DNA from: Octopus vulgaris
Taxonomy: Eukaryota
Direction of reading: 5' to 3'
Assembly: GCA_951406725.2 (NCBI GenBank)
Contig: OX597832.1
Coordinates: forward strand, 44,392,001 to 44,456,000
DNA length: 64,000 nucleotides
Shown: piece after piece, positions 8,545-55,902 of the stretch
How positions within the stretch are numbered: position 1 is the first letter of the stretch
Layout of the letters: every line of letters starts with the position of its first letter
Position numbers and translations under genes: made by a program
Notes under the pieces: generated by a model
Databases searched by the model: none
Seen by the model: only the letters and a program-made list of their open reading frames with translations
What the model was told of the DNA's origin: nothing

Positions 8545-8614
8545 ATGGCAGAAGTAATCAGTTGTCTTATTTTCTTGATTGCCTTATCTTGTGTCTCACA
8601 ACAAACAGCCTCAG
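8545..8614 (+). CDS. Signal-peptide leader exon of the serpin gene (MAEVISCLIFLIALSCVSQQTAS + 1 nt)
   Basis: ATG at 8545, hydrophobic core, donor CAG|gtatat at 8614/8615; phase 1 joins the acceptor at 10724 in frame (G+AT ACG ACT ATG = DTTM). Confidence 0.8.
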
Positions 8615-10724: not shown

Positions 10725-11887
10725 ATACGACTATGGACTCAGCAAAGAAACAAGCCATCGGTAACCTTGCTGCTTCAATTGATTATTTTACAAACAGTCT
10801 TTATCAAGCTGTGGCTACAAGAATCAATGAAAATGTCTTCATGTCACCATTAAGTGTTGCTACAGTTTTATCAATGGTTTATTTGGGAGCAAGACAAAAC
10901 TCTGCCAAACAGTTTGAAAATGTTTTGAAGATAACATCAAATCCAGATTCTGTAGCTTTAGCTTTTAAAGAATATTTTTCACTTTTGAAAAACTCAGATA
11001 AACTTGTCACATTCAATTCAGTGAATCGTTTGTATGCCAGTGAAATATTCCCTATTTCTGAAGACTACAAGAACAACATGGTAAAATATTTCTTTTCAGA
11101 TATTGAAAATGTAGACTTCATAATAAATGCTGAGAAGACAAGAAGAACTATTAATGATTGGGTTAAGAATAACACAAATAACAAAATTACTGATCTGTTA
11201 CCAAGTGGAAGTTTGACACCTCAATCAATTCTAGTTCTTATTAATGCTGTATACTTTAAAGGAATGTGGGCTAAAAAATTCCCAGAACATGCAACAAAAT
11301 CTAGAAAGTTTTATTTACGTTCTGACAAGACTGTATTTCATGATTTTATGTATAAATCTGAAGATTTTAATACCAAAACAAGCGACAACTATAAAGTCGT
11401 TGAGTTACCTTATATTGGAAAAGCATTTAGTATGTTTGTAATTCTTCCCAATGACATCAATGGTCTTGCTGCTTTAGAGAAGGAGATTAATGCTCAATTT
11501 CTCAAAGATATTATAAACAGAAAAGGATTTGAAATGATGTATCTAGAATTACATATGCCAAAATTTCGTTTAGAGAGTTGTTTTCAGTTGGGTGAAGTTT
11601 TGAAAAAGCTTGGACTCTCTGATATTTTTGATCCTCTAAAAGCTGATTTATCTGGAATGACTGGTGGTGAGAAGAATATTTATGCCAGTGAAATGTTTCA
11701 TAAAGCATTTGTTAATGTTAATGAAGAAGGAACGGAAGCTGCTGCTGCAAGTGGAATGGTCGCGATGGCAATGTCAGTACAAATTGGGATGGAATTTTAT
11801 GTCAATCACCCATTCACATTTTTGATTGTTGATAACCGAACTAAAATGATCCATTTCATTGGTAAAGTAACAAATCCTACAACATAA
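10725..11887 (+). CDS. Serpin copy 1, main exon; RCL SGMVAMAM-SVQ (predicted P1-P1' Met-Ser)
   Basis: NVFMSP, NAVYFKGMW, EEGTEAAAA hinge and NHPF signature; polypyrimidine tract plus AG at 10723-10724; internal ATG at 10733. Confidence 0.97.
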
Positions 11888-37585: not shown

Positions 37586-39238
37586 CCATTGGCTCCTGAA
37601 AGTTATGAGGGAAAAAATCGGATTGTGTGAATTTTGCGAAAGTCCTCTCCTCCTCTCCGTTTCGTTTGCGCAAATTTTGTTTTCCAGATTCGTTAACTTT
37701 TTTCTTCTTGTTCTGGTGGCCGGGTATTAAACATGTAGTGTGATGGATGAAGAAGACAACAGAAAAAGAAGCAACGGGAGAAAGAAATACAAAAGGCCTT
37801 ACCTCTTCGAAATCAGCGGTCTCTTTCACGAATTCGGCACGTCTTAACGCTTTCCCGTCTATGTTGGAACTGTCCTGCTTGACAAACTCCTGCTGCGCAT
37901 GCATTCTGCAGTCTTCCGCCCACTTCATCTATCACCAGTGCACCACTTAGCTCATCACATCCTATAACACCGACTGCCAACACCACAAAACTAGGTAGTA
38001 ACCGATTCGCTGGCAGAAAAGTTAGCACGCCGGGCGAAATGCTTAGCGGTATTTCGTCTCCTACTACGTTCTGGTTTCAAATTCCGCCAAGGTCGAGTTT
38101 GCCATTCATCCTTTCGGGGTCGATAAATTAAGTACCAGTTACGCACTGGGGTCGATGTAATGGACTGAATACCTATGTCTGTCCTTGTTTGTCCCCTCTG
38201 TGTTTAGCCCCTTGTGGGTAATAAAGAAATAGGTATTTCGTCAGCGATACGTTGTGAGTTCAAATTCCGCCGAGGTCGACTTTGCCATTCATCCTTTCGG
38301 GGTCGATAAATTAAGTACCAGTTATGCACTGGGGTCGATGTAATGGACTGAATACCTATGTCTGTCCTTGTTTGTCCCCCCTGTGTTTAGCCCCTTGTGG
38401 GTAATAAAGAAATAGGTATTTCGTCAGCGATACGTTGTGAGTTCAAATTCGGCCGAGGTCGACTTTGCCTTTCATCCTTTCGGGGTCGATAAATTAAGTA
38501 CCAGTTACGCACTGGGCTTGATGTAATGGACTGAATACCTATGTCTGTCCTTGTTTGTCCCCCCTGTGTTTAGCCCCTTGTGGGCAATAAAGAAATAGGT
38601 ATCCCAGACACTCCTATTTGATTGATACAGAAATTTAACCGTTTTCTTATTTTTTAAGGTAGGATATGATTTTAGGAAGATTTGGCTGGTCTATTGACCA
38701 CGTAGGGGTTTTCTCTTTGACTCATATCTAGATTTTGATGTCAGCCAAGCTTTCTAAAGAATGAAAGTTTTCGAAAATGAACACGTTAATAATAAATAAT
38801 TTCCATTATTTAATTCATACAAAAACATTCGGTTAATGTGAATAACTTGTCTTAATTTATCTAAAAAGACGAAGTAAAAAAAAAAAATCTAATCTGCTAC
38901 ATGGTGAAGTTTTGCCGTGATTTGACTTTCAAATAATGCATGACAAAACTATGGAATGTCGTCGATAATGAAGAGACTTTGCGAGGAAAGTTCGACCGAC
39001 TTGGCAATGAATGTGAAGTAATTAGTATGTCGAGTTAGGTTCCTTGCTGATAGAGAGTTAAAATGGGAGAAACTTTTTTGTTTTAAAATTTCTATAGCGC
39101 AAAATAGAAGTTAACTGCAGCATAAAGTAGAAAAGAAGTTCTGCCGACGACCACGTAGACTGCAGTTGACTCCAGAAAGTGTACGGTAGACTAATTAACG
39201 ATCTCGGCGTATAATGTGTGATGAACCAGAAATAATAA

Positions 39239-40965
39239 TCTCTCTCTATATAAAACTGAGAACGTGTGTCTGTTTGTGTTTCCCTAAAAGTTGAGAACTA
39301 CATAACCAATTTCATTCAAATTTTACACATGCCTTAATCAGGGTCCATGTTTTTTTAATGGGCAAAAAAAATGTTCAACTTCTTGCCTTGGGCGAGCCCA
39401 TAGCAATATCATATCTTCTCCACTATGATTCCCTAAAACTTGAAAAGTACATAACCAATTTCATTCAAATTATACACATGCCTTACTTAGGGTCCATGTA
39501 GTTTCATGGGCAAAAAAATGTTCAACTTCTTGCCTAGAGCGAGCCCATAGCAATATCATATCTTCTCCACTATTTCAGTGTTACGTGTTAAAAGTGAAAC
39601 AAAAACATTTCTCTATTTTATGTCAGATACTTTCACTTTAACAATAAAAGTTAGAGATAATAATAACAATTGAATTATATGCAGTAAGTAATAATTACAA
39701 TCAAACTAAAGTATAATATAATCGTAACATAACAAAAGTAAAAATAGCAGTTGGTATAAAACTGCATCAATGACTTGAACTTGAATAAGTGATTTCACAT
39801 GAATGGGAATAAATCAAAAATAAAATTAGTGTGCAGTATTGGAATAGCCCAGATGGAGCTGTGCACATACCATTTACCACGGCTTTTACATTAGATTATT
39901 TGCTAATTAGCTAGCATTAAGTTTGGCTGCATGTAATGTCTGTTTTCTCGAACAGCCACTACTACTGAGTACTGCTGTTGGTTTATTTTTTATACATAAA
40001 AGACCATAGCTTCAACTGCGTACTGCTTTTTGATTCACCGTAAGGATTGTTGTTATTATTATTATTATTGTTTATTGTTATCACGTTTGTTGGTTCCTAG
40101 TAAGGGAAACGTTGTTGTGTTACATTTGTTAAATAATTGTAAACTGTAACCCTCCTTCTTTGGGAAAAGGGGCTTTGGTTATTGTTTAAAAATTGAATTG
40201 TGTCCCTGTTTGGGGAAATTGACAATATTTTCACTGTTTATACGGAAGCATTTTTGTTAGAATGCCTTCGATAGAAGAAAGTCCAAAAATGAATTTCGCT
40301 GCAGCCGTCGGCGGGCGCGACCTCATTAAAATTAAAATGGAAGAAATACAAACCTATTTCGGATTGATCACAGACAAAGATGGTGAATCTAGGATAACAC
40401 CACCAAACGAAATAAAAAATTAAATTAAAGAAAAGACTATTGTCTATAAAGTATACAATGTAGAGAAAAAAAAGATTTGAACACCTGGAGGAAAGCACCA
40501 TCGTAAAGTGTCTTGGTGCGACTATGAAAGATATCTAACCAGAGGCAGTAAATTCACCACAATAGAAGCAAGGTTCGAGTCAACGGAGCGTGCAAGGGAG
40601 TACTTGACTCGAACCTTGCAAAGTGGAAATATTTTATTTTTACCTTTATATCTGGGACGTAGGACGTCCTGGATGAAAATTAAAAATGTCCCCCCAGAAG
40701 TAGAGGTAGGCTGGATTGTAGCCACACTTCTATACAAGAGGGAGGACACGATACAATTGATCGAAATTGCAAGAGACAAGCCTACAATTCCAGTCTGTTA
40801 TATATTTTGAATGTTGTTATCACTAGCGATATCAAGATATAACTTTGTATTTTGTATTTTATGTGTAGATGTATATATATAGATGTACATGTAATATGTA
40901 CACATATATACACATATATACATGCACTAGCACTATGACCCGGCAATAACGGGTCATAATGCTAG
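39239..40965 (+). mobile_element. Complete non-autonomous Helitron with internal ~130-bp repeats and cargo
   Basis: A|TC start; tatgacccg-gcaataa-cgggtcata hairpin followed by CTAG|T. Confidence 0.75.
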
Positions 40966-42077
40966 TAATAAATAAAGATATTTTTTTCAACTAGCAAGGA
41001 AAATCATTAACTAATACTCGCCCGAACTTCTTTTTAAATATGGAGCAATATATGCATGAAATAAGTAAATAATTAATGAACACATGTAAATAATTAATTA
41101 AGAAAATAATTAAGTAAATAATTAATGAACACAAGTGTGATCGTTGCCAGAGCAGCAAACTGCCTTCCGTTCCGGTGGCACGTAAAAAGCACCCTTTGAG
41201 TGTGATTGTTGCCAGCGTTGCCTTACTGGCACATGAAAAAACATTCAAGCAAGGTCGTTACCAGTGCTGCTGGACTGGCACCTGTGCAGGTGGCACGTAA
41301 AAAACACTATTTGAGCATGGCCGTTGCCAGTACCACCTGACTGGCCCTAGTGCCAGTGGCATGTAAGAGTACCCACTACACTCTCGGAGTGGTTGGCATT
41401 AGGAAGGGCATCCAGCTGTAGAAACTTTGGCAGATCAGATTGGAGCCTCGTGCAGCCATCTGGTTCACCAGACCTCAGTCAAATTGTCCAATCCATGCTA
41501 GCATGGAAAGTGGACGTTAAACGATGATGATGATGATTCTTGTTCCACTTATAGACAGAACACTCCAGAATATATATTAATCATTCTCTTTGTTATTTTG
41601 AGAATGCCAACTTTGCTACATTACTAATTCGGCAATTAAGGCAGTGAGCTAGCAGAATCATTAACGTGCCAGGGGAAATGTTTGGTATTTCGCCTGTCAC
41701 TACATTCTGAGTTCTAATTCCACCGAGGTCGACTTTGCATTTCATTCTGTTGGGGGTCAATAAAATAAATACCGGTGGTACACTGGGGTCAGTGTAATCG
41801 ACTTGATACCGACTCCTCAAGCTGCACTTGTGGCAAAAATTTGAAATAATTATTAATTAGACAGTGCATTAATTAGACATATGCATGGTATTTATATGTA
41901 TATAGTGTGTTGGCTGTTAACTTTTCAAAAGTTTTGTAACATCAAAATTACAGAATCAATGGAATTCTTCAATCAAGATCCAAGACTAAAATCCCTGAGG
42001 TTAATATGAGGGCTCAAGAATTTCAAATGTCTATATTTAAAAGAAAATAAAAGCCAGATGCAATTAACACATACATA

Positions 42078-42479
42078 GGCGCAGGAGTGGCTGTGTGGTA
42101 AGTAGCTTGCTAACCAGCCACATGGTTCTGGGTTCAGTCCCACTGCTGGCATCTTGGGCAAGTGTCTTCTGCTATAGCCCCGGGCCGACCAATACCTTGT
42201 GAGTGGATTTGGTAGATGGAAACTGAAAGAAGCCTGTCGTATATATGTATATATATGTATATGTATGTATGTGTGTGTGTGTGTGTTTGTGTGTCTGTGT
42301 GTTTGTCCCCCTAGCATGGTGTGTTTACGTCCCCGTCACTTAGCGGTCCGGCAAAAGAGACCGATAGAATAAGTACTGGGCTTACAAAGAATAAGTCCTG
42401 GGGTCGATTTGCTCGACTAAAGGCGGTGCTCCAGCATAGCCGCAGTCAAATGACTGAAACAAGTAAAAGAGTAAAAGAG
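42078..42479 (+). mobile_element. SINE family 1 in the 3' flank of the mini-cassette
   Basis: Full copy with small deletions. Confidence 0.9.
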
Positions 42480-42701
42480 AGAAAAAAGAGAATAATGATT
42501 AAATATTTACTGAGATGCTTTATTAATATAAACAGAAATAAAACTTACAAGCATTGATTTCACTTTATTCAATAAGTAAATAACGTTTACAGGCAACAAT
42601 AAGTATATTGTTAAAATAATAAAAGATACGTTCAAGAGTGTAATATCTTTCCGTAAATGTACAACACATACAAATTGATAATGTTGATTAAAATTAAAAC
42701 T

Positions 42702-43029
42702 TATTTACGTTATTTACAATTGACAAGAATTTGTCCTCATCTTGTTTGTTGTTAACACATTTCAGCTGATATTCTATCTAGCATTCATCAGGTGTCTTGG
42801 GGAAATTTCGAACCTGGGTTCTCATTCCTAAGGTATTTTTCGATGTTGCTGTTGTTGTTATCATCATCATCATCATCATCATCATTATTCAGGCCACTGC
42901 CTGGAATTGAACGTGGGCATATGGCGTAGTCGTTAAGAGCACAGGCTACTAACTCCAAGATTCCGAGTTCGATTCCAGGCAGTGACCTAAATAATGATAA
43001 TAATAATAGTAATAATAATAATAATAATC

Positions 43030-43074
<45 letters not shown>

Positions 43075-43619
43075 CAGTACCAGGCAGTGGCTCTCATGGC
43101 TTCTCATCTTAACTGATTGGAAGTGTTATCATGTACATTGTTTTGTCTTGGTATGAAAGATTGGCTTACAAAAATATTCTGCTCAATACCACAGATTTGC
43201 TTGTCAGTTGTTTGACCTCAACCAGTTGATCATGTCCCTTAGTGGCTGACGATATGTGCATCTCTGATTACGAGCAGAAGTAGTGGGGGAGCATCATAGC
43301 CATGTGTTGAGAGGGACTCTTCAGGGTTTGAATAATTCACCTCTGGAAACATGGGTGTTTTGTTCAACATCCTTAAACAACCCTTATTCAGGGACCTTTT
43401 GAGCTGGATGGGCTACTCGACCAGAAGAAAATTCTAAGTGGGCCCCACCTGCAAGGTCATGTGCTGTTGATCTTGATATGAGATCACCATGTCGCACACA
43501 TATGGTTGTGATGCATGTGCCTAGTGTACCCTTATCAGACGGGTAGTCATGATGGGTATACTGGGCTTCGTATATTCTACACTAGTATCACTTTGATGGC
43601 ATGCACTACTCTCTCACTC

Positions 43620-43672
<53 letters not shown>

Positions 43673-43860
43673 CAAAATCGCAAAATACCTTAGGAATGAG
43701 AGCCCAGGTTCGAAATTTCCCCAAGACACCTGATGAAGGCTGGAGGGTATATCAGCCGAATCATTGTGTTAATAACAAACAAGATGAGGACAAATATCCA
43801 TCAATTGTAAATAATGTATTTAATTCCTCATCTCTTAAATATAGAACTAAATTAAAACTA
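42702..43860. mobile_element. Penelope-like composite insertion with inverted ends
   Basis: 42702-42848 is the reverse complement of 43673-43820; aaattaaaact direct repeat on both sides; degenerate hammerhead core ctgatga-aggctg..cagcc-gaa at ~43730. Confidence 0.55.
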
Positions 43861-44031
43861 TTCTTATAATCTTTCATTGCATAGATATGTCCATGGTTCT
43901 GCACAATTACAACTATAATGGTTTAAGTCATTCTACTCAAAAATATTGTAAATGGATTTGCTGAGTTACGTTGTCTACATAATACAATCTAGTATCCCAT
44001 AAGAGAAAAATCTTTGACAAGACAATATCAT

Positions 44032-44207
44032 CTATATCGTGGGGTTTGTTACTTTACCAATGAAATGGATCATTTTAGTTCGGTCATCAACAACTAAAAA
44101 CGTGAATGGGTGATTGACATCAAATTGCATCCCAATTCTCGACATATAATTTGAGACCACCATTCCACTTGCAGCAGCAGCTTCCGTTCCTTCGTATATA
44201 GTCGTAT
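44032..44207 (-). other. Serpin mini-cassette: splice acceptor fused in frame to hinge, RCL and C-terminus (58 aa); RCL SGMVVSNY-MSR
   Basis: ctccag|AT ACG ACT ATA TAC GAA GGA ACG...; about 1 kb of scaffold is missing; open frame to a TAG stop. Confidence 0.85.
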
Positions 44208-44299
44208 CTGGAGAATATAGAATATGAAGAGAAAATATACAAAATAAATTTGTATAAACATTTGAGGCTACTGACCAGATCTCTAGATGGTGCAAAGTC

Positions 44300-44570
44300 C
44301 CCTTTCATCCCAAGGTAACATGGTGGTGGAACAATGTAGTTGACAGGGTCATTAGGGAAAAGAAACAGGCATGGAAAGACTGGAAGAACGGTGGTAGCAG
44401 GGAATTGTATCAGATCGCCAGAAGGGAAAATAGGAGACAGGTTTACTTAGTCAGAGGGGAAGCAGATAAGAAAAAAATTTGTCAATGTTCTGTGTCGTGA
44501 GGACCAAAGACTTAAAGTGTTTTGTGTTGCAAGACAGTGTGTGAGAGAGAATCATGATGTTATAGGAGAG
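44300..44570 (+). mobile_element. LINE (RTE-like) ORF fragment
   Basis: TWWWNNVVDRVIREKKQAWKDWKNGGSRELYQIARRE resembles the endonuclease-RT linker. Confidence 0.65.
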
Positions 44571-44655
44571 ATATACACACACACAAATACATGCATGCAT
44601 GTACACGTACACACACACACATACACACTCATGCATGCATATTTTTATTATGAGT

Positions 44656-45460
44656 TACTCTCTCTTTTACTCTTTTACTTGTTTCAGTCATTTGACTGCG
44701 GCCATGCTGGAGCACCGCCTTTAGTCGAGCAAATCGACCCCGGGAATTATTCTTTGTATGCCCAGTACTTATTCTATCAGTCTCTTTTTGCCGAACCGCT
44801 AAGTGACGGGGACGTAAACACACCAGCATCGGTTGTCAAGCAATGCTAGGTGGACAAACACAGACACACAAACATATACACACACATACATATATACGAC
44901 AGGCTTCTTTCAGTTTCCGTCTACCAAATCCACCCACAAGGCATTGGTCGGCCCGGGGCTATAGCAGAAGACACTTGCCCAACCCGGAACCATGTGCTTG
45001 GTTAGCAAGCTACTTACCACACAGCCACTCTGCGCCTATATAAATATTTCTGTATAAATATTTCAAAATGTTGAGTTAGTATGAAGGACGTTGAGTAATT
45101 CTGCTTCAAAAAAATTAGATGAAAAACAAAACAAGAATAAAATAACTTGTTGGATTTATGAATGTTAAAAATCTCCAAACAATTATCAGATAATAGATGA
45201 ACTGAGAACAATGGAATATTAGGCGTAGGAGTGGCTGTGTGGTAAGTAGCTTGTTAACCAACCACATGGTTCCGGGTTCATCCCACTGTGTGGCATCTTG
45301 GGCAAATGTCTTCTGCTATAGCCCCGGGCTGACCAATGCTGTGTGAGTGGATTTGGTAGACGGAAACTGAAAGAAGCCTGTCGTATATATATATGTATGT
45401 GTGTGTTTGTGTGTCTGTGTTTGCCCCCCTAGCATTGCTTGACAACCGATGCTGGTGTGT
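44656..45460. mobile_element. Head-to-head inverted pair of SINE family 1
   Basis: 44656-45037 (-) and 45222-45460 (+, truncated). Confidence 0.85.
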
Positions 45461-45997
45461 AAAAGTTTTGTAATGCCACAATTATTGAAACAATGTAATT
45501 ATTTTATCAAGATCCAAGACATAATTACGAAGGGTGAACACGGGGGCTTAAAATTTCGAATGTCTAAATTTAAAACAAAGAATATAAAAGCCAGATGCAA
45601 TCAACACATACAAAATAATGGAATATTTACTGAGATACTTTATTAATATGAAGCATACAAATATTGATTTCACTTCATTCAACCAGAAAATAACGTTTAC
45701 AGGCAACAGTAGATATATTGTTAAAATAGTAAACTTGCAAAGAAAGGATACTTTAAAAAGTGTCAAAATTTTCTGTCAATGTATGGCATATACAAATTCA
45801 TAATATTGATTTAGATTAATGTGGTATTATAATATATCATTGAATAGATATGACCTTGGTTCTACACAGTTACAATTATAATGTCCTAAGTCATTTTACT
45901 AAAAAAACCATTCTAAATAAATTTGTTCAGTTACATTCTCCACATAATACAATGTAGTATTCCCTAAGAGGGAAATCTTTGACAGGGCAATATCATC

Positions 45998-47168
45998 TCA
46001 TGTTGTAGGATCTGTTACTTTACCAATGAAATGGATCATTTTAGTTCGGTCATCAACAACTAAAAACGTGAATGGGTGATTGACATCAAATTGCATCCCA
46101 ATTCTCGACATATAATTTGAGACCACCATTCCACTTGCAGCAGCAGCTTCCGTTCCTTCTTCATTAACATCAACAAATGCTTTATGAAACATTTCACTGG
46201 CATAAATATTCTTCTCACCACCAGTCATCCCAGATAAATCAGCTTTTAGAGGATCAAAAATATCAGGGAGTCCAAGCTTTTTCAAAACATCACCCAACTT
46301 AAAACTACTCTCTAATGAAATTTTGGCATATTTAATTCTAGAAGCATCATTTTAAATCCTTTTCTGTCAACAATGTCTTTGAGAAATTGAGCATTAATCT
46401 CCTTCTCTAAAGCAGCAAGACCATTGATTTCATTGGGAAGAATTACAAACATACTAAATGCTTTTCCTATATAAAGTAACTCAACAACTTTATAGTTGTT
46501 GCGTATTTTTGTATTAAAATCTTCAGATATATACATAAAATCATGAGATACAGTCTTGTCAGAGCTTAAATAAAACTTTCTAGATGATGTTGCTTGTTCT
46601 GGGAATTTTTCAGCTCACATTCCTTTGAAGTATACAGCATTAATAAGAACTAGAACCGACTGAGGTGTCAAACTTCCACTTGGTAACAGATCGGTAATTT
46701 TGTTATTTGTGTTATTCTTAACCCAATCATTAATAGTAATTCTTGTCTTCTCAGCATTTGTTATGAAGTCTACATTTTCAATATCTGAAAAGAAATATTT
46801 TACCATGTTGTTCTTGTAGTCTTCTGAAATAGGGAATTTTTCACTGGCATACAAACGATTCACTGAATTGAATGTGACAAGTTTATCTGAGTTTTTCAAA
46901 AGTGAAAAATATTCTTTAAAAGCCAAAGCTACAGAATCTGGATTTGATGTTATCTTCAAAACATTTTCAAACTGTTTGGCAGAGTTTTGTCTTGCTCCCA
47001 AATAAACCATTGATAAAACAGTAGCAACACTGAATGGTGACATGAAGACATTTTCATTGGTTCCTGTAGCCACAGCTTGATAAAGACTGTTTGTAAAATA
47101 ATCAATTGAAGCAGCAAGGTTACCGATGTCTTGTTTCTCTGCTGAGTCCATATCGTATACGATAGTGT
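45998..47168 (-). pseudogene. Serpin pseudogene; RCL SGMVVSNY-MSR
   Basis: Full-length homology; TGG>TGA at 46615-46617 and a 1-bp deletion near 46315. Confidence 0.9.
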
Positions 47169-47680
47169 CTAGAGAATATAGAATATGAAAAGAAAATATA
47201 CAAAATAAATTCTGGCAAACATTTCAGTATATTGTAGAAGACATCTATGAAAGCAATGTCTGAAATCTCTTCTGTTCAAACTTTAAATTTAACTTTTACA
47301 TGAACATATTTTGTACGGTAACACTTAATATGATTTAAATAGATTTTAAAATAATTAAAAATTTATAAGATTTAATAATATAACCATTTCTTTCTTCCAT
47401 TCTTTATGTGGCATTTGGCACATACCTTAAAATGATGTTGAAATGTTTTAGCTTAAATACGGTGATTATTTACAAAATAGATTTGAACATTATGTATCAC
47501 ATTTAGAATACAGTTAGGAAACAATAAAATTTGGGTTTTTGCATAAATCATTTCAGACGATTTTCATACAGAATTCTTAGATCACATTAGTGTGTTTTAC
47601 ACTCTCTTGAAATATTGAACAGGAACTGTTTTTCAGGAAATTCTTTTGCATTTCATCTCTTCATATTGTATATTCTTTAG

Positions 47681-48729
47681 ATGCCACGGAAATAATATGG
47701 ACTAAGCAAAGAAACAAGACTTCGGTAACCTCGCTGCTTCAGTTGATTATTGTACAAAGAGTCTTTTTCAAGCTGTGTCTACAGGAACCGTTGAAAATGT
47801 TTTCATGTCACCATTCAATGTTGCTACCGTTTTATCAATGGTTTATTCTGGAGCAAGACAAAACTCTGCCAAACAATTGAAAATATTTTGAAAATAACTT
47901 TAAATACAGATCCTGTAATTTGAGGTTTTAAAGAATATTTTTCACTTTTGAAACACTCAGATGAACTTATTGCATTGAATTCAGTCAATTGTTTTAGTGC
48001 CAATGAAAAATTTCGTATTTCAGAAGACTAAAAGAACATTATTGCAAAAAATTTCTTTTCAGATATTGAAAATGTAGACTTCATGACAAATATTGGAAAA
48101 GGAAGAATTAATATTAATTACAATGTTGTAAGACAACAAGATGCTAGAATTGTTAGTATGCTGGGCAAAATACTTAGTAGCAATTTGTCCATCTTGACAT
48201 TCTGGAGTTGACATTGTCATCCTTTAGGGTTTGACAAAATAAGTACCAATTGAGCACTTGTGTTGCTGTAATTGATTTACCCCTACAATTAAATTGCTGG
48301 CCTTGCACCAAAATTTGAAAGCAGTTTTAATGATTGTGCTGAAAATAACACAAATAACATAATTACCGATCTCTTAACAATTTGAAGTTGACACCTCAGT
48401 CGGTTCTAGTTCTTATTAATGCTGTGTACTTGAAAAGAATATGGCATAAAATATTCCTATAAAAAGCAACATCATCTAGAAAGACAATTTTAGCACAAAA
48501 ATAAGCAACAGCTCTACAGTTGTTGAGTTACCTTATATAGGAAAAGCATTTAGTATGTTTGTAATTCTTCCCAATGAAATCAATGGCCTTAATGCTTTAG
48601 TGAAGGAGATTAATGCTCAATTTCTCAAAGATATTGTAGACAGAAAAGGGATTTGAAATGATGCTTCTAGAATTAAATATGCCAAAATTTCGTTTAGAGA
48701 GTAGTTTTAAGTTGGGTGATGTTTTGAAA
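47681..48729 (+). pseudogene. Old serpin pseudogene, truncated before the RCL
   Basis: Acceptor tctttag at 47680; ATG GAC TAA at 47697; many stops; degenerate SINE at ~48120-48325; ends at LGDVLK. Confidence 0.9.
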
Positions 48730-49422
48730 CCCTACAATCTGCTCAATCCAACTATAGGAAAACTGATCTTTCTTACTGTTTCCACCAATGGCACACCCTC
48801 TGAAATATTTTCAAATCACTCACTACTGAAATGCAAACCGAGGCAAATTCATATGTAACCTGACACCACGATGCCTGATTACTCATCACAGGCAAGTGTT
48901 GTCCTTGAAATACCACATCCTGCTAAATGCTGGCCAAGTGACACAACCATCTTGCCTGCTTCACCACATGCCATCATCATCATCATCCATCATTTTGAAT
49001 CCGGGTTTTGTCCTCATTAACGACGGTGGCCGGATCTACTTCAATGCCATAGCAATTGCCCTCACACCATCTCACACATTTTTCGGCAATCCTCCCTTCC
49101 CAAGCCAACCATCCCAATCACCTCCTCCACTTGTTCCCTCCACCTGTTCCACAGTCTATTTCGCTTTTGCCGTCCATTTCCCTCAGACTCTAGCACCCTC
49201 TTCACAACTTGCCCCTCATCCCTCGTGTAGCATCTGTTACAAGAAGCAGTTGTTGCTGAAATATCATACACTTAAGAATGTCATTCACTTGGCACCAACA
49301 TTATGTTTGTTTCCCATAAATGAATTGATGTCGCTATGAGAGCAATAACAACCAGATGACTCAAACTGATCATTGGAGATTTAAATACATCAGCCCTTAA
49401 GCCACTCCAGATTTATTTTAAA

Positions 49423-49818
49423 CTAGCAGTATCGCCCGGCGTTGCTCGGGTTTGTAAGGGAAATAACTATATAAGCATTTTTAGAGATGTAAAGTATAAT
49501 AGCCATCTCAATATGGCTAACCACAAAGGGAGGGTGTTACTGTAGCTTTTTATGTTCTGAAATTTAATAATACATTTTTAGAGAGTTATTTCCCTTATAT
49601 ATGCCAAAAATGCATTAAAAATGGGGAAAATTGATGGTAAATTATTTTTAAAATCGTAGACTCATCGTAGATGCGCGCTATTACCCAGAAGGGCTCGATA
49701 TGAATCACGACTATAAGATACCCGGTTTTGGTTAAACTGTACTGCAAAATGTGGGAGTAGTTAGGAATCTAAATCGTAGGAGACAGACAGCACACAACCT
49801 CACTTTTATATATAAAGA
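49423..49818 (-). mobile_element. Non-autonomous Helitron
   Basis: Same CTAG/hairpin end as 7359; 5' TC at 49818. Confidence 0.75.
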
Positions 49819-51374
49819 TTCTCTTAACTCTCTCCTTAAATATCGGATGATGTGAAAATGTTTGCAATTTCTAATGTTTTAAATGATGTGCCATTGTTAA
49901 AGTTTTATTAAACTGAATATATTGGGTGATACTTTCTCTTGTTCACTCATTCTTATATATGTATACACACAAACGGGTGTATATATATAACGTATACATG
50001 TTTACTCTCCCAGACTCTAGGCTTATGTGTCTCATTTGCTCTTTTCCTCTACTGGGCATTCCATCCTGCCGCAGTTTTCATCAGATCAACTGATACCACG
50101 GATTTGAGTCTGCTTCATAAGGTTTTAACTTATGCAGTATCCATTATCCATTTCCATATTACTTTATGTAGAAAGAAAAGGCTTTCTTCTTTTCTCTACA
50201 ACAATATTTGTGCCATTTAAATTTCCCTCTCAGCAAAAAGTATTTTTGTGTTGAAAATATATTCTCAAATCATATTTTCTAATAATTTATTTAAGTTGTT
50301 AAGATGTATATTATGTCACTTTATCTATGAGGTCTGATCAAAAATTATCCGGCCTTGTGCTATAAAAAAAAAAACTACAACACATATTAATTCAGCATTT
50401 AATCCTCTTTGAAGTAGTCCCATTCTGAAGCTACACAAATGACCCAACATTGTTTCCATTCATGGATGCTTTATGTACCATACACAGTATAAATACATCA
50501 CAAAATTTCAATTTACTGCAGTATATATCTCCAGATAATATCCTTTAAGAACATGCTGCATATAAAAATACGATATATATCGAAGGCAGATGAAAATTGT
50601 TCTAGTTGCAAGTATGCTAGTTTCTAGCTGCAGCTGGTGAGTGTGTTAGATGTATTTCTGCCTCATCTAAGCAGCTGGTTGCCTATGAGTATATGCTATT
50701 GATAACATCCAACAGGACCTGAATGCATCTAGTATCCTCACCAACCAACCAACCAACCACTGCTAGGACAATCTTCATATGCCTGATATAAATAGCATTT
50801 TCAAACACAGCATATCTATGTGAGGTTTTATCTCTGTATGAATACTGTATTGAATCAATGTAATTTTTTAATGAAGATCTAAGACTAAAATACCAGAGAC
50901 TATCAAGAGGGCTGAAGAAGTTGAAATGTCTACATTTGTAACAAAGCTATTAAAAGCCAGTTGCAATTAACACATACATTAAAATGGAATATTTACTGAG
51001 ATGCTTTATTAATATAAACAGAAATAAAAACATACAAGCATTGATTTCATTTTATTTAACCAGTAAATAATGTTTACAGGCAACAATAAGTATATTGTTA
51101 AAATAATAAACTTGCAAAGAAAGGATACTTTAAAAAGTGTCATATTTTTCTGTCAATATATGGCAAGTACAAATTCATAATATTGATTTGGATTAATGTG
51201 GTATTATAATATATCATTGAATAGATATGACCTTGGGTCTGCCAGATTACAATTATAATGTCCTAAGTCATTTTACTAAAAAAACGATTCTAAATATATT
51301 TGCTCAGTTACATTCTCCACATAATACAATGTAGTATTCCATAAGAGAGAAATCTTTGACAGGGCAATATCATC

Positions 51375-52555
51375 TTATGTTGAAGGATTTGTTACTTTAC
51401 CAATGAAATGGATCATTTTAGTTCGGTTGTCAACAATTAAAAATGTGAATGGATGATTGACGTCAAAATCCATACAATTTATAACAAATCGTCCTAACAC
51501 TTTCCTCCTTTCCATTGCACTTGCAGCAGCAGCTTCCGTTCCTTCTTCATTAACATTAACAAATGCTTTATGAAACATTTCACTGGCATAAGTATTCTTC
51601 TTACCATCACTCATTCCAGATAAATCTGCTTTTCGAGAATCAAAAATATCAGAGAGTCCAAGCTTTTTCAAAACATCACGCAACTTAAAACTACTCTCTA
51701 AACGAAATTTTGGCATATGTAAATCTAGACCCATCATTTGAAATCCTTTTCTGTCTACAATGTCTTTGAGAAATTCAGCATTAATCTCCTTCTCTAAAGC
51801 AGCAAGACCATTGATTTCATTGGGAAGAATTACAAACATACTAAATGCTTTTCCTCTATAAAATAACTCAACAACTTTATAGTTGTTGCTTATTTTTGTA
51901 TTAAAATCTTCAGATATATACATAAAATCATGAGATACAGTCTTCTCAGAGCTTAAATAAAACTTTCTAGATGATGTTGCTTGTTCTAGGAATTTTTCAG
52001 CCCACATTCCTTTGAAGTATACAGCATTAATAAGAACTAGAACCGTCAGAGTGGTCAAACTTCCACTTGGTAACAGATCGGTAATTTTGTTATTTGTGTT
52101 ATTCTTAACCCAATCATTAATAGTAATTCTTGTCTTCTCAGTATTTGTTATAAAGTCTACATTTTCAATATCTGAAAAGAAATATTTTACCATGTTGTTC
52201 TTGTAGTCTTCTGAAATAGGGAATATTTCACTGGCATACAAACGATTCACTAAATTGGATGTGACAAGTTTATCTGTGTTTTTCAAAAGTGAAAAATATT
52301 CTTTAAAAGCTAAAGCTACAGAATCTGGATTTGATGTTATCTTCAAAACATTTTCAAACTGTTTGGCAGAGTTTTGTCTTGCTCCCAAATAAACCATTGA
52401 TAAAACAGTAGCAACACTGAATGGTGACATGAAGACATTTTCATTGGTTCCTGTAGCCACAGCTTGATAAAGACTGTTTGTAAAATAATCAATTGAAGCA
52501 GCAAGGTTACCGATGTCTTGTTTCTCTGCTGAGTCCATATTGTATTTGGTAGTGT
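51375..52555 (-). CDS. Serpin copy 4; basic RCL SAMERRKV-LGRF
   Basis: Intact ORF (MDSAEK at 52538); phase-1 acceptor giving DTTKYNM; the ORF-track extension to 52586 is polypyrimidine tract. Confidence 0.95.
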
Positions 52556-53049
52556 CTAGAGAATATAGAATATGAAGAGAAAACATACGAAATAAATTCT
52601 TGCAAACATTTCAAAATAATTTATTAGACATTACTGTAATTATAGACATCTATGAAAGCAAAGTCTGAAATCTCTTCTGATCAAACTCTAATATTAACTT
52701 TTACATGAACGTATTTCTTAACATAACACAGAGTTGATGTGTTTTAAACACTTTTTAAAATAATTAAAAATTTATATATACCATTTTTTCTCCATTATTT
52801 ATCTGATATTTGGCACATATCTTAAAAGTTTCATTTATAAGATGATGTTGGAACTTATCCATGTTTACATTTCTGAGACAAATTTGAATGGAGCAGGTTT
52901 AGTTTTCATTTTTTGCATATATGGTAAGATAAGGTATCAAGTACAATGATATACTCCACCTGCTGAGAGCCTGGCCAAATACTTGCAACAAAATGACATC
53001 TTCACAAAAGGCCTCCAAGTGCCTTGAGGTGATGTTGAACTAATTAGTG

Positions 53050-53610
53050 TGTAAAGGGAACTGGTTGCTTCTTTACACTTTTGGGGTGCAACTTGGGTTC
53101 AACACAATTTCCTTTCCTTTTTGTTTCTAGAAAATACCAGTCGGTAACAAAACGCAACTTTAAAAATATATACGATTCTTTATTCTCTTATTCACAAATG
53201 AAGCACGATGGCATACTGGTATCCACCTAGTTCAACACAGCAAAGCTGAATTCTAACGTTTGTAAGATTCTTACAACAATTCAGCATTAATAGAACAGGT
53301 CAAATCCTAAGCGTCTGGGACAGGAGAATAGGCTGATCACACGTTTAAAAATACGTCCTTTCTCTTCTATCACTGTGTCTCAAGTCAACGACGCTATTAA
53401 GGAACGCGATAGAATTTCTTCCCCAGTCTCTAGCGCATGTGCATGAGGAAACTTCCTTATGCCTTTCCAGAAGGTTCCAGGAGGTTCCAACCCCGCACAC
53501 GCATACTGAAGAAGGATGTACCGCACACGCACACTGAAGAAGGATGTACCGCACACACACACTGAAGAATGACGTTGCGTGTGCGCACATTGGAATATGA
53601 CGTCAGTACA
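53050..53610. mobile_element. Solo LTR with 4-bp TSD AGTG (Gypsy-like)
   Basis: agtg|TGTA...TACA|agtg; empty sites at ~21170 and ~33833. Confidence 0.8.
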
Positions 53611-55902
53611 AGTGTAATACCAAGCTAGACCGGATCGGGTAAACCTAGACTCAATGGTTAATATTTAGTTTGTAGAATGACCGTGTGAAGGAGAGGTGAC
53701 GAGAATGTCTCCTTTAGTACGCCGCACGGTCGATTACAATAAATAGGAAAAAGGATGAATGAGTATGAATGCCAGCAGGAAAAGAGAGACACAACCAGTC
53801 GAATGTTGAAGAGAAAGATTTTATTGATAGGTTAACATGTGTGTCTGTGTGTGTGTCGTGTATATATAATAATAGACAGGCCGTCATGTATACATAATGT
53901 GTGTGCAGAAACGTGGATGTATGCGTGTGCGATGAGTACAGAGCATTGAAAGAGTCTATAATAGGACGTTAGAAGAATGCAATGCAGAGCCAGTTGAGGC
54001 ACGTGTCATGCGTGAAGCTGTGGCTACTATGCAGAGCCGGTTACTTGGTACAGAAGGTTCTCGCAGGTTGTATCTGCTGTTAACCATGGTGAAATAATTC
54101 ATGAACAGTGTTGAGTAGAGGCCATTGATTGGTTAAAATCTGAAATATTAAACTACGTTAAACTTACAAATTACAATTTTCTCAAGAGAGCCAGAAATTG
54201 TGTTGAAAACTGCCGTTCAAAAGGAATAGATCCTCCTTTTCTAATTGAAACCATTTTTCTGCAAAGCCTTCCACATGACCATATCACGCCATCCGACAAA
54301 TTTTGATGCTCTTATCCCACCAATGGAGCACGCGTGTGGCCCACTGGTATCATCATTAAAGGGGATGAGGAGTAAAAAAAAAAATCATAAATTTTCCAAA
54401 CCATTTTTTCATAACAAGATGTTTCCCATCATTTCGAAGTTTGTGGTGAAAAACAATCGGGAAAACCCTGTCCAAAAGGGAGAAATTCCAACTTATGTGG
54501 TCTTCTTGATCGGAAACTCCTCTCCCTGCTCCCTAAAAATTTTTTCCAAAAAAATTTCTTTATAATCTTAATCCATGCCGTTTGAAATGTATTTATATAA
54601 AATTTCACTAAAAGATATCCATTTTCCTGAAAGTTATGAGGGAAAAAATCGGATTGTGTGAAGTTTGCGAAAGTCCTCTCCTCATCCCCGTTTCGTTTGC
54701 GCAAATTTTGTTTTCCAGATTCGTTAACTTTTTTCTTCTTGTTCTGGTGGCCGGGTATTAAACTTGTAGTGTGATGGATGAAGAAGACAACAGAAAAAGA
54801 AGCAACGGGAGAAAGAATAACTAAAGGCCTTACCTTTTCGAAATCAGCGGTCTCTTTCACGAATTCTACACGTCTTATCGCTTTCCCGTCTATGTTGGAA
54901 CTGTCCTGCTTGACAAACTCCTGCTGCGCATGCATTCTGCAGTCTTCCGCCCACTTCATCTATCACCAGTGCACCACTTAGCTCATCACATCCTATAACA
55001 CCGACTGCCAACACCACAAAACTAGGTAGTAACCGATTCGCTGGCAGAAAAGTTAGCACGACGGGCGAAATGCTTAGCGGTATTTCCTCAGCGATACGTT
55101 GTTAGTTCAAATTCCGCCAAGGTCGACTTTGCCTTTCATCCTTTCGGGGTCGATAAATTAAGTACCAGTTACGCACTGGGGTCGATGTAATGGACTGAAT
55201 ACCTATGTCTGTCCTTGTTTGTCCCCTCTGTGTTTAGCCCCTTGTGGGTAATAAAGAAATAGGTATCCCAGACACTCCTATTAGATTGATACAGAAATTT
55301 AACCGTTTTCTTATTTTTTAAGGTAGGATATAATTTTAGGAAGATTTGGCTGGTCTATTGACCACGTAGGGTTTTTCTCTTTGACTCATATCTAGATTTT
55401 GATGTCAGCCAAGTTTTTTAAAGAATGAAAGTTTTCGAAAATGAACACGTTAATAATAAATAATTTCCATTATTTTATTTCATACAAAAACATTCGGTTA
55501 ATGTGAATAACTTGTCTTATTTTATCTAAAAAGACGAAGTGAAAAAAAAAAAATTTAATCTGCTACATGGTGAAGTTTTGCCGTGATTTGACTTTCAAAT
55601 AATGCATGACAAAACTATGGAATGTCGTCGATAATGAAGAGACTTTGCGAAGAAAGTTCGAGCGACGTGGCAATGAATGTGAAGTAATTAGTATGTCGAG
55701 TTAGGTTCCTTGCTGATAGAGTTAAAATGGGAGAAACATTTTTGTTTTAAAATTTCTATAGTGCAAAATAGAAGTTAACTGCCGCATAAAGTAGAAAAGA
55801 AGTTCTGCCGACGACCACGTAGACTGCAGTTGACTCCAGAAAGTGTACGGTAGACTAATTAACGATCTCGGCGTATAATGTGTGATGAACCAGAAATAAT
55901 AA

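Follow-up and report, generated by a model that had tools for sequence, protein, structure and literature searches.

We describe here a 147 bp tract shared base for base by two neighbouring serpin copies, A and B, in a 64,000-nucleotide stretch of the Octopus vulgaris genome (GenBank assembly GCA_951406725.2, contig OX597832.1, positions 44,392,001 to 44,456,000; hereafter the window). The copies belong to a tandem array of serpin genes, each with its whole body on one exon, and the tract covers the hinge, the reactive-centre loop (RCL) and the C-terminus. Comparison with the other copies suggests that the identity is most probably the mark of a non-allelic gene conversion (or an equivalent double crossover) that left a patch in B derived from A or from a full-length ancestor of A. 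Coordinates are positions in the window unless given with C19 or an L-number, L-numbers being array copies or, for L018 and L039, other loci; gene F is an array member outside the window, and A' and B' are a second A and B pair.

The two copies of the tract and the ends of the two reading frames are as follows.

44047..44193, minus strand: tract copy in A, from the hinge (EGTEAAAA) through the RCL to ...GKVT; 147/147 identical to B and 146/147 to F; matches Pfam Serpin profile positions 320-370 of 370.
46013..46159, minus strand: tract copy in B; 0/147 differences from A, 1/147 from F and 21-30/147 from 12 other copies.
44032..44046, minus strand: last four codons NPTI and TAG of A, of the F-lineage type, NPTI also ending F.
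45998..46012, minus strand: last four codons DPTT and TGA of B, in which 46012 (G, Asp for Asn) is private to B and B'.

The original prediction had claimed base-for-base identity of these segments, and all 147 bases are indeed equal, with no further matching base at either end. Both copies are coding on the minus strand, and the tract corresponds to 49 codons running from the second Glu of an EEGTEAAAA hinge through the RCL to ...HFIGKVT. The predicted end of identity a few codons before the stop is also there, with seven of 15 bases unlike between NPTI-TAG in A and DPTT-TGA in B; the NPTI end is found in the F-type proteins of Octopus sinensis and O. bimaculoides as well. Flanks were compared after all 17 copies of the array on this contig, 15 of them full length and the other two A and A', had been aligned with MAFFT, as ungapped 50-nt sliding identity is uninformative beyond the tract owing to indels. 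In this alignment the 3' untranslated regions (UTRs) of A and B differ at 34 of 180 aligned bases and by two gap events, which agrees with the mismatched 3' flanks that had been reported, and the segment comparison rules out a uniform identity of A and B through tract and flanks. The wider description of an identical tract inside diverged flanks holds for the 3' side; on the hinge side A has no homologous sequence, 996 bp being deleted there.

Copy B spans 47168-45998 on the minus strand and is full length and broken. It carries a nonsense change (TGG to TGA) at 46617-46615 (codon 179) and a 1-nt deletion (CGT to CA-) at about 46316 that leads directly into TAG; both lesions are common to B and B'. 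The pieces match Pfam PF00079 with 149.5 bits (positions 4-164) and 114.5 bits (positions 263-370), and as read from these lesions B is a pseudogene from which no whole inhibitor would be possible. The parts of B outside the tract and its last codons are the following.

46160..47151, minus strand: scaffold coding sequence of B, L006-like, with 16/940 differences from L006 versus 41/941 from F.
47152..47170, minus strand: body-exon start of B at 47168 and its AG acceptor at 47170-47169.
45461..45997, minus strand: 3' flank of B, of the L012/L017 ('copy 2/3') type, with 8/350 differences from each of these two.

These parts have different closest relatives. The 5' intron flank of B is closest to L006 (2/108 differences; F 31/97), as is the scaffold. 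Within the tract the next best match after A and F is L012 (21/147 differences and two gaps), followed by L006 (24/147) and L017 (29/147). Over the first 183 nt of the 3' UTR, L011 and L017 are closest with six differences each, A and F differing at 34/180; over the next 350 nt, to which the L012 and L017 counts above refer, L006 has 56/344 differences and F is not alignable. The prediction that the 3' flank of B resembles that of copy 2 (L017, at 19.5 kb in the window) is borne out by these 6/183 and 8/350 differences. Group-diagnostic sites in B follow the same order, being those of group 1 (the '3-kb array') from 47278 to 46332, F-type from 46134 to 46051, those of group 1/2 from 46010, and those of group 2 (the '12.7-kb unit') from 45749 down. 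By the pattern of its substitutions B is a three-way mosaic, in which an A/F-type patch of 85-237 bp lies between an L006-like 5' flank and scaffold and an L012/L017-like 3' flank.

The change of affinity at the tract is abrupt. In the scaffold and in the UTR alike, informative sites at which B is like F or like L006 are in a ratio of 4:28, as against 23:0 in the tract (Fisher 9e-12 for the tract versus either flank), and in the informative core at 46051-46135 sites like F or like L017 are 28:0. The differences between B and F step from 41/941 to 1/147 and then to 34/180, so that the tract is bounded on both sides by lower identity. Of 130 variable columns in the A-B comparison 37 are discordant, yet 61 concordant columns follow one another without a break, a length that none of 200,000 permutations reaches; the longest-run permutation for B and F likewise gives 0/200,000. 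The original prediction had proposed separate trees for the RCL and the 3' UTR, and the maximum-likelihood trees place B in different company. In the tract tree A, A', B, B' and F form a clade with 99/100 support, whereas the UTR tree unites A, A' and F (100/100 support) and places B with the remaining 14 rows.

Copy A, which spans 44207-44032 on the minus strand and lies 1,966 bp from B, is a much shorter element. In coding order it has a polypyrimidine tract, an AG acceptor and 14 nt of exon start, and then directly the hinge. F shares this acceptor and exon start and continues with 996 bp that are absent from A; the missing stretch begins at the base preceding the ATG, ends at the first hinge Glu and is in frame (332 codons), and the deletion junction in A, at 44193/44194, has a 2-nt GA microhomology. 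A is thereby without the start codon and 331 further codons, the last 53 codons remaining, and its profile match to Pfam PF00079 (45 bits) covers positions 320-370 only. Splicing was rejected as the cause of the deletion, the missing 996 bp neither starting with GT nor ending with AG. The surroundings of A are as follows.

44194..44209, minus strand: first 14 nt of the body exon (44207-44194) and AG acceptor (44209-44208), abutting the hinge.
44210..44656, minus strand: intron and upstream region of A, 98.5% identical over 463-465 nt to the upstream region of F.
43864..44031, minus strand: 3' UTR of A, of the F-lineage type, with 7/180 differences from F versus 32-37 of about 180 from all others.

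Downstream from the tract A and F are 95.2% identical over 1650 nt and 97-98% identical over about 5 kb further on. These features identify A, on the alignment, as a paralogue of the intact gene F with an internal deletion, and it is neither a gene nor a dedicated RCL exon; A is unable to make a whole inhibitor. The original prediction had described the flank of A as much more diverged. The divergence is confirmed, the 32-37 differences applying to every in-window copy, but it is not special, as this is merely the flank type of intact gene F (95-98.5% identity). A recent duplication of a 147 bp piece was rejected since the flanks of A match F over more than 2 kb. Long (AAT)n microsatellites lie on the 3' side of A, at 42972-43094 and 43599-43700.

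A search of the O. vulgaris genome with the tract gives 20 matches, of which four are at 100% (A, B, A' and B'), one is at 146/147 (F) and 15 are at 76-87%. The F tract is at C19:44496474-44496620, 58 kb beyond A. F is an intact gene of 384 codons with the same RCL and NPTI end as A, and is the working carrier of the A/B-type RCL. Its last 85 residues are identical (85/85) in O. sinensis and 92% identical in O. bimaculoides, and its orthologue-level relatives there, XP_029647969.1 ('leukocyte elastase inhibitor isoform X3') and XP_014778358.1 (isoform X1), have the same RCL type and the NPTI end. These F-type proteins are intact, with 413 residues and a signal peptide, whereas A has only the last 53 codons, and B has the same RCL on another scaffold, with a DPTT end, and is broken.

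F matches solved inhibitory serpins over its full length, including antithrombin (1e-68), PAI-2 (1e-65), SERPINB3/4 (1e-65) and leukocyte elastase inhibitor (1e-64), and resembles the clade-B-like (ovalbumin-type) and antithrombin-type serpins in fold and in its canonical inhibitory hinge EEGTEAAAA, although the F-type RCL is without a close counterpart among those solved proteins. The inhibitory hinge consensus has Gly at P15, Thr or Ser at P14 and small residues at P12-P9, and a hinge of the type EEGTEAAAA is present in all copies compared. Counting from the hinge (Gly at P15), Tyr is the predicted P1 residue of F, from which one would expect a chymotrypsin-like target. A HMMER alignment places the Arg-Ser of antithrombin, its P1-P1', opposite a one-residue gap adjoining this Tyr. 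An exact sequence look-up of F and of the in-window copy 3 in a protein collection gave no match. A lone intact serpin on another contig, L018 (C1:20070168-20070313), has an NPTI end and a ...MQFDVNHPF motif like the F type, and may by these likenesses be an old relative of the F lineage.

The ends of the 147 bp tract do not mark those of a conversion. The hinge was said to be 'exactly' where the identity starts, and it is so because the breakpoint of the 996-bp deletion in A falls there; on the stop side the tract ends at the B-private substitution at 46012, with A/F-specific sites following at 46010-46002. The figure of 147 bp therefore arises from the deletion in A on one side and a substitution private to B on the other, and the idea that the tract exactly frames a module as conversion end points is not supported. 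The informative part of the patch is shorter:

46051..46135, minus strand: informative patch core (the RCL proper), 85 bp, where B matches A/F and no other copy.

In this core the remaining 13 copies have a mean pairwise difference of 0.24. The arms on either side are nearly invariant, with values of 0.03 for the hinge-side arm (46229-46136, 94 nt) and 0.01 for the stop-side arm (46050-46013, 38 nt). B equals F from 46228 to 46013 except at 46106, with 46229 and 46012 both private to B/B'. On this alignment the patch is at least 85 bp and at most about 237 bp long, and its true ends would lie within 46247-46136 and 46050-46011.

We propose that A/F-type sequence for the hinge, RCL and C-terminus was copied into B by non-allelic conversion, or by two crossovers no more than 237 bp apart, and that the exchange would have been resolved in the conserved arms at 46229-46136 and 46050-46013. 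The direction would be from the A lineage to B, since in F and A this RCL type goes with NPTI and F-type flanks, and since A and B share a derived base at a single site, 46106, where both have G and F and the other copies have A. The RCL type itself appears old and native to the F lineage because the O. sinensis and O. bimaculoides proteins carry it together with NPTI. The conversion probably came before A lost its scaffold, because the upstream homology remaining after that loss would have come to only 24 bp (46159-46136).

Ectopic conversion between array copies, as the original prediction had it, is thus the best explanation, but its description as transfer of a specificity module between cassettes is only partly supported, the partners being a deletion remnant and a pseudogene and the neat hinge boundary having another cause. 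There is also no direct evidence of RCL swapping in a functional sense. For the 105 pairs of the 15 full-length copies the RCL core has a median difference of 0.28 versus 0.045 in the flanks (about 6-fold), which is the classical picture of a hypervariable reactive centre, and the core is closer than the flanks in only two pairs, B-F and B'-F; with the pattern limited to these, RCL swapping is not shown as a general or functional mechanism here. The event has no functional consequence for A or B.

Several observations count against this account or parts of it. There is no upstream flank in the A-B comparison, so that the upstream limit of the patch comes from B versus F only, and this limit is in a region where the whole family is invariant. 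Approximately unbiased (AU) tests did not reject trees constrained to join B to A/F for the 3' UTR (p 0.36) or to F for the scaffold (p 0.37); one long A/F branch among otherwise star-like rows leaves both tests with little power, and they yield no formal rejection at tree level. The direction depends on the one shared derived site at 46106 and on parsimony. DNA reads were available as short Logan contigs for three runs and as raw reads for one (four reads placed), and no contig in the three runs bridges either end of the tract by at least 31 nt. The base private to B at 46229 (G, minus strand) is in no contig of the same three runs, all of which showed the paralogue base; possible explanations for this G are individual variation, a fault in the assembly, or short contigs that derive from paralogues.

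A different history, in which B is natively of the F lineage and had more than 1.6 kb of its 5' part replaced from a copy of the 3-kb-array type and its 3' flank from one of the L012/L017 type, leaving at most 237 bp of the original, is unlikely. The mosaic alone is silent on which segment moved, and exchange of large blocks is clear in the family (a 16-kb block, with 99.4-100% identity, is nested in a 43-kb duplication of greater age). It requires two large replacements as against one small patch, and the whole 5' context of B is of the 3-kb-array type, including a head-to-head partial copy at the standard 546-bp spacing. From the divergence of the A and F flanks (1.5-4.8%), two to seven differences per 147 bp would be expected between A and a native F-type B, and none is observed.

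An assembly or polishing artefact, in which the tract of one copy was written onto the other or the assembler switched copies, is highly improbable. The assembly has the same tract four times over (A, B, A' and B'), multi-mapping reads could erase a few true differences, and the reads give no bridging confirmation; polishing, however, would be unable to rewrite the 21-30/147 positions and the indels that separate the tract of B from every non-F copy, F retains its one difference, and for a chimeric join the assembler would have had to switch twice inside 85-237 bp. Five to six flanking sites distinguish each of A and B from its counterpart in the A'/B' pair, so the pairs were assembled separately, and the structure is the same in both. 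Moreover, a 144-nt DNA contig present in two runs from different, independent studies is an exact match to 46021-46164; it has the A/B-type base at 46106 and reaches 5 nt into the scaffold.

The patch in B is itself found twice in the locus. The A and B pair recurs as A' and B' 42,836-42,837 bp away with 99.6-99.8% identity, within a 16-kb block (about 38,000-54,000) that recurs at +42,830 to +42,837 bp with the identity given above and is nested collinearly in the older duplication of about 43 kb (92-99% identity). The block could be the result of recent large-scale homogenisation or of recent duplication, and less likely a falsely duplicated haplotype. The patch and both lesions are in B' as well and so predate the 16-kb duplication or homogenisation. 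Inside the block the intact copy L013 (51375-52610) is only 98.8% identical over 1 kb to its duplicate L016 (C19:44486226 region), with several differences in the RCL and C-terminus (ASAMERRKVLGRFV... vs ASGMERRKVSGRFF...; NPST vs NPTT).

Ten array copies, F and nine others, are intact, and five of the 15 full-length copies are broken if the assembly indels are real. The intact in-window copy 3 scores 366 bits to Pfam PF00079 (cut-off 27) over profile positions 4-370. Outside the window L006, L011 and L015 have frameshifting indels with first stops at codons 161, 61 and 233, respectively; the L006 RCL type is intact in a predicted O. sinensis isoform, X2. The genome has a single minus-strand match to the signal exon, at C19:44529204-44529278 (L039:504-578), upstream of the whole minus-strand array. 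Its donor, CAG/GTAAAT, is in phase 1, and the body acceptors (ag/AT ACG...) give Asp-Thr-Thr as in the 413-residue Octopus proteins, in which the signal peptide is joined to ...DTTIYDMDS..., that is, with the body-exon acceptor used in frame. The predicted O. sinensis isoforms X1, X2 and X3 have one signal peptide and three bodies with the RCLs of L010, L006 and F, and these isoforms together with the sequence signals suggest that in this array one signal exon is probably joined to alternative terminal exons, each a whole serpin body. Copy 1, the only one on the plus strand (body exon 10733-11881), is served by a separate plus-strand signal exon at 8545-8613. RNA-like contigs of paralogues stop at 47168/47169, at the body-exon start of B, and those on 46766-47169 carry two to eight differences and so are from paralogues; RNA-like contigs gave no junctions between the signal exon and bodies. 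Four runs guessed to be RNA leave both 45932-46303 and 43948-44319 uncovered at a likeness of at least 98%, which has no bearing on expression of A or B.

Two further features adjoin the copies.

47697..48729, plus strand: degenerate partial serpin copy, head-to-head with B, located by a tblastn map and inverted blastn matches.
44657..45460, no strand assigned: spacer between A and B, mostly interspersed-repeat copies with many dispersed matches at 77-94%.

A head-to-head partial copy lies 546-548 bp upstream of B and of each 3-kb-array unit (L011, L009, L008 and L006), and this conserved divergent arrangement may mark a shared upstream region. The spacer contains an inverted pair, 44818-45038 and 45220-45460, of 85% identity. 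Elsewhere in the window there is a 183-bp tandem repeat in three copies (89-96%) at 38065-38613, and long purine-rich simple repeats at 25.4-26.2 kb and 56.3-56.9 kb account for open reading frames of 100-200 codons that are spurious.

The arrangement of the array bears on a further alternative, that A is a working RCL unit, either an insect-type exon from hinge to stop or a terminal exon giving a small secreted RCL and C-terminal peptide. A still has a polypyrimidine tract and an AG acceptor with 14 nt of exon behind it, the frame left by its 996-bp deletion fits the phase-1 donor of the signal exon, and the predicted isoforms X1-X3 join one signal peptide to three different bodies. If used behind the signal exon, A could possibly encode a short secreted fragment of the RCL and C-terminal strands only. 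All 15 full-length copies read through the hinge with no intron or donor, so the insect-type model fails; the form is seen only in A and its duplicate A' among the 20 genome matches, an in-frame deletion has a one in three chance, and a 53-residue serpin fragment would be without a fold of its own. We regard a working A as a very slight prospect, and the same holds for the corollary that its identity with B is held by selection or repeated conversion. Selection was rejected as the cause of the identity, since it cannot hold synonymous sites the same next to a UTR with 19% difference, and since A and B are both defective.

The resemblance of A to mutually exclusive RCL exons of insects is superficial. 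Such exons are described for Manduca serpin-1 exon 9 (Jiang et al. 1994, cited in an excerpt of the review PMC3966226) and for Drosophila Serpin 42Da (excerpt of PMC4006314), and A, like them, has a splice acceptor followed by hinge, RCL, C-terminus and stop, in a locus with many RCLs. Unlike in the insect genes, no donor precedes the hinge in any octopus copy, and the acceptor of A is the ordinary body-exon acceptor moved by deletion. Mutually exclusive RCL exons were therefore rejected for this locus, only A and A' running from hinge to stop, and these by deletion.

Other parallels are the rodent Spi-2/Serpina3 and alpha-1-PI clusters, where tandem paralogues likewise combine a conserved scaffold with a divergent RCL (0.24-0.28 vs 0.03-0.05 in the octopus array) and non-allelic conversion has been invoked for the reactive-centre region. 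As cited in the excerpt of PMC3966226, accelerated RCL evolution in mammalian serpin clusters goes back to Hill & Hastie 1987, and gene conversion with selection at the reactive centre was put forward from substitution statistics by Ohta 1994. In the mammalian clusters conversion is inferred statistically and is seen as a source of diversity among working genes; in the octopus one discrete patch is seen directly, it is homogenising, and the two partners are a deletion remnant and a pseudogene, from a cephalopod with single-exon serpin bodies. A literature search on serpin reactive-centre gene conversion found only the PMC3966226 review citing Ohta 1994, and one on octopus or cephalopod serpin clusters with hypervariable RCLs or conversion found no account of this locus in the papers searched.

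Conversion between tandem neighbours, a gene and a pseudogene, is familiar from human CYP21A2/CYP21A1P and from the pseudogene donors of chicken immunoglobulin V genes. The octopus case is like these in having a short tract between close paralogues of which one is defective, and differs in that the receiving copy, too, is a pseudogene and nothing is seen to have passed into a working gene. It is conceivable, though we think it very doubtful, that the hypervariable core between invariant arms acts as a conversion cassette, with the broken copies A and B a reservoir of bait loops for working bodies and, further, a possible peptide from A. If so, the array would be a germline analogue, on an evolutionary timescale, of pseudogene-templated diversification.

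The proposed conversion of B by the A lineage is an ordinary gene-family process, and with both partners dead it shows that the mechanism operates and not that it is put to adaptive use. It provides a clean, directly visible conversion patch confined to the specificity loop of a serpin, for a process that was proposed decades ago from mammalian statistics. For this family it also means that the RCL of an array copy is unusable for inferring the orthology of that copy, and that pseudogenes can carry 'fresh' RCLs.

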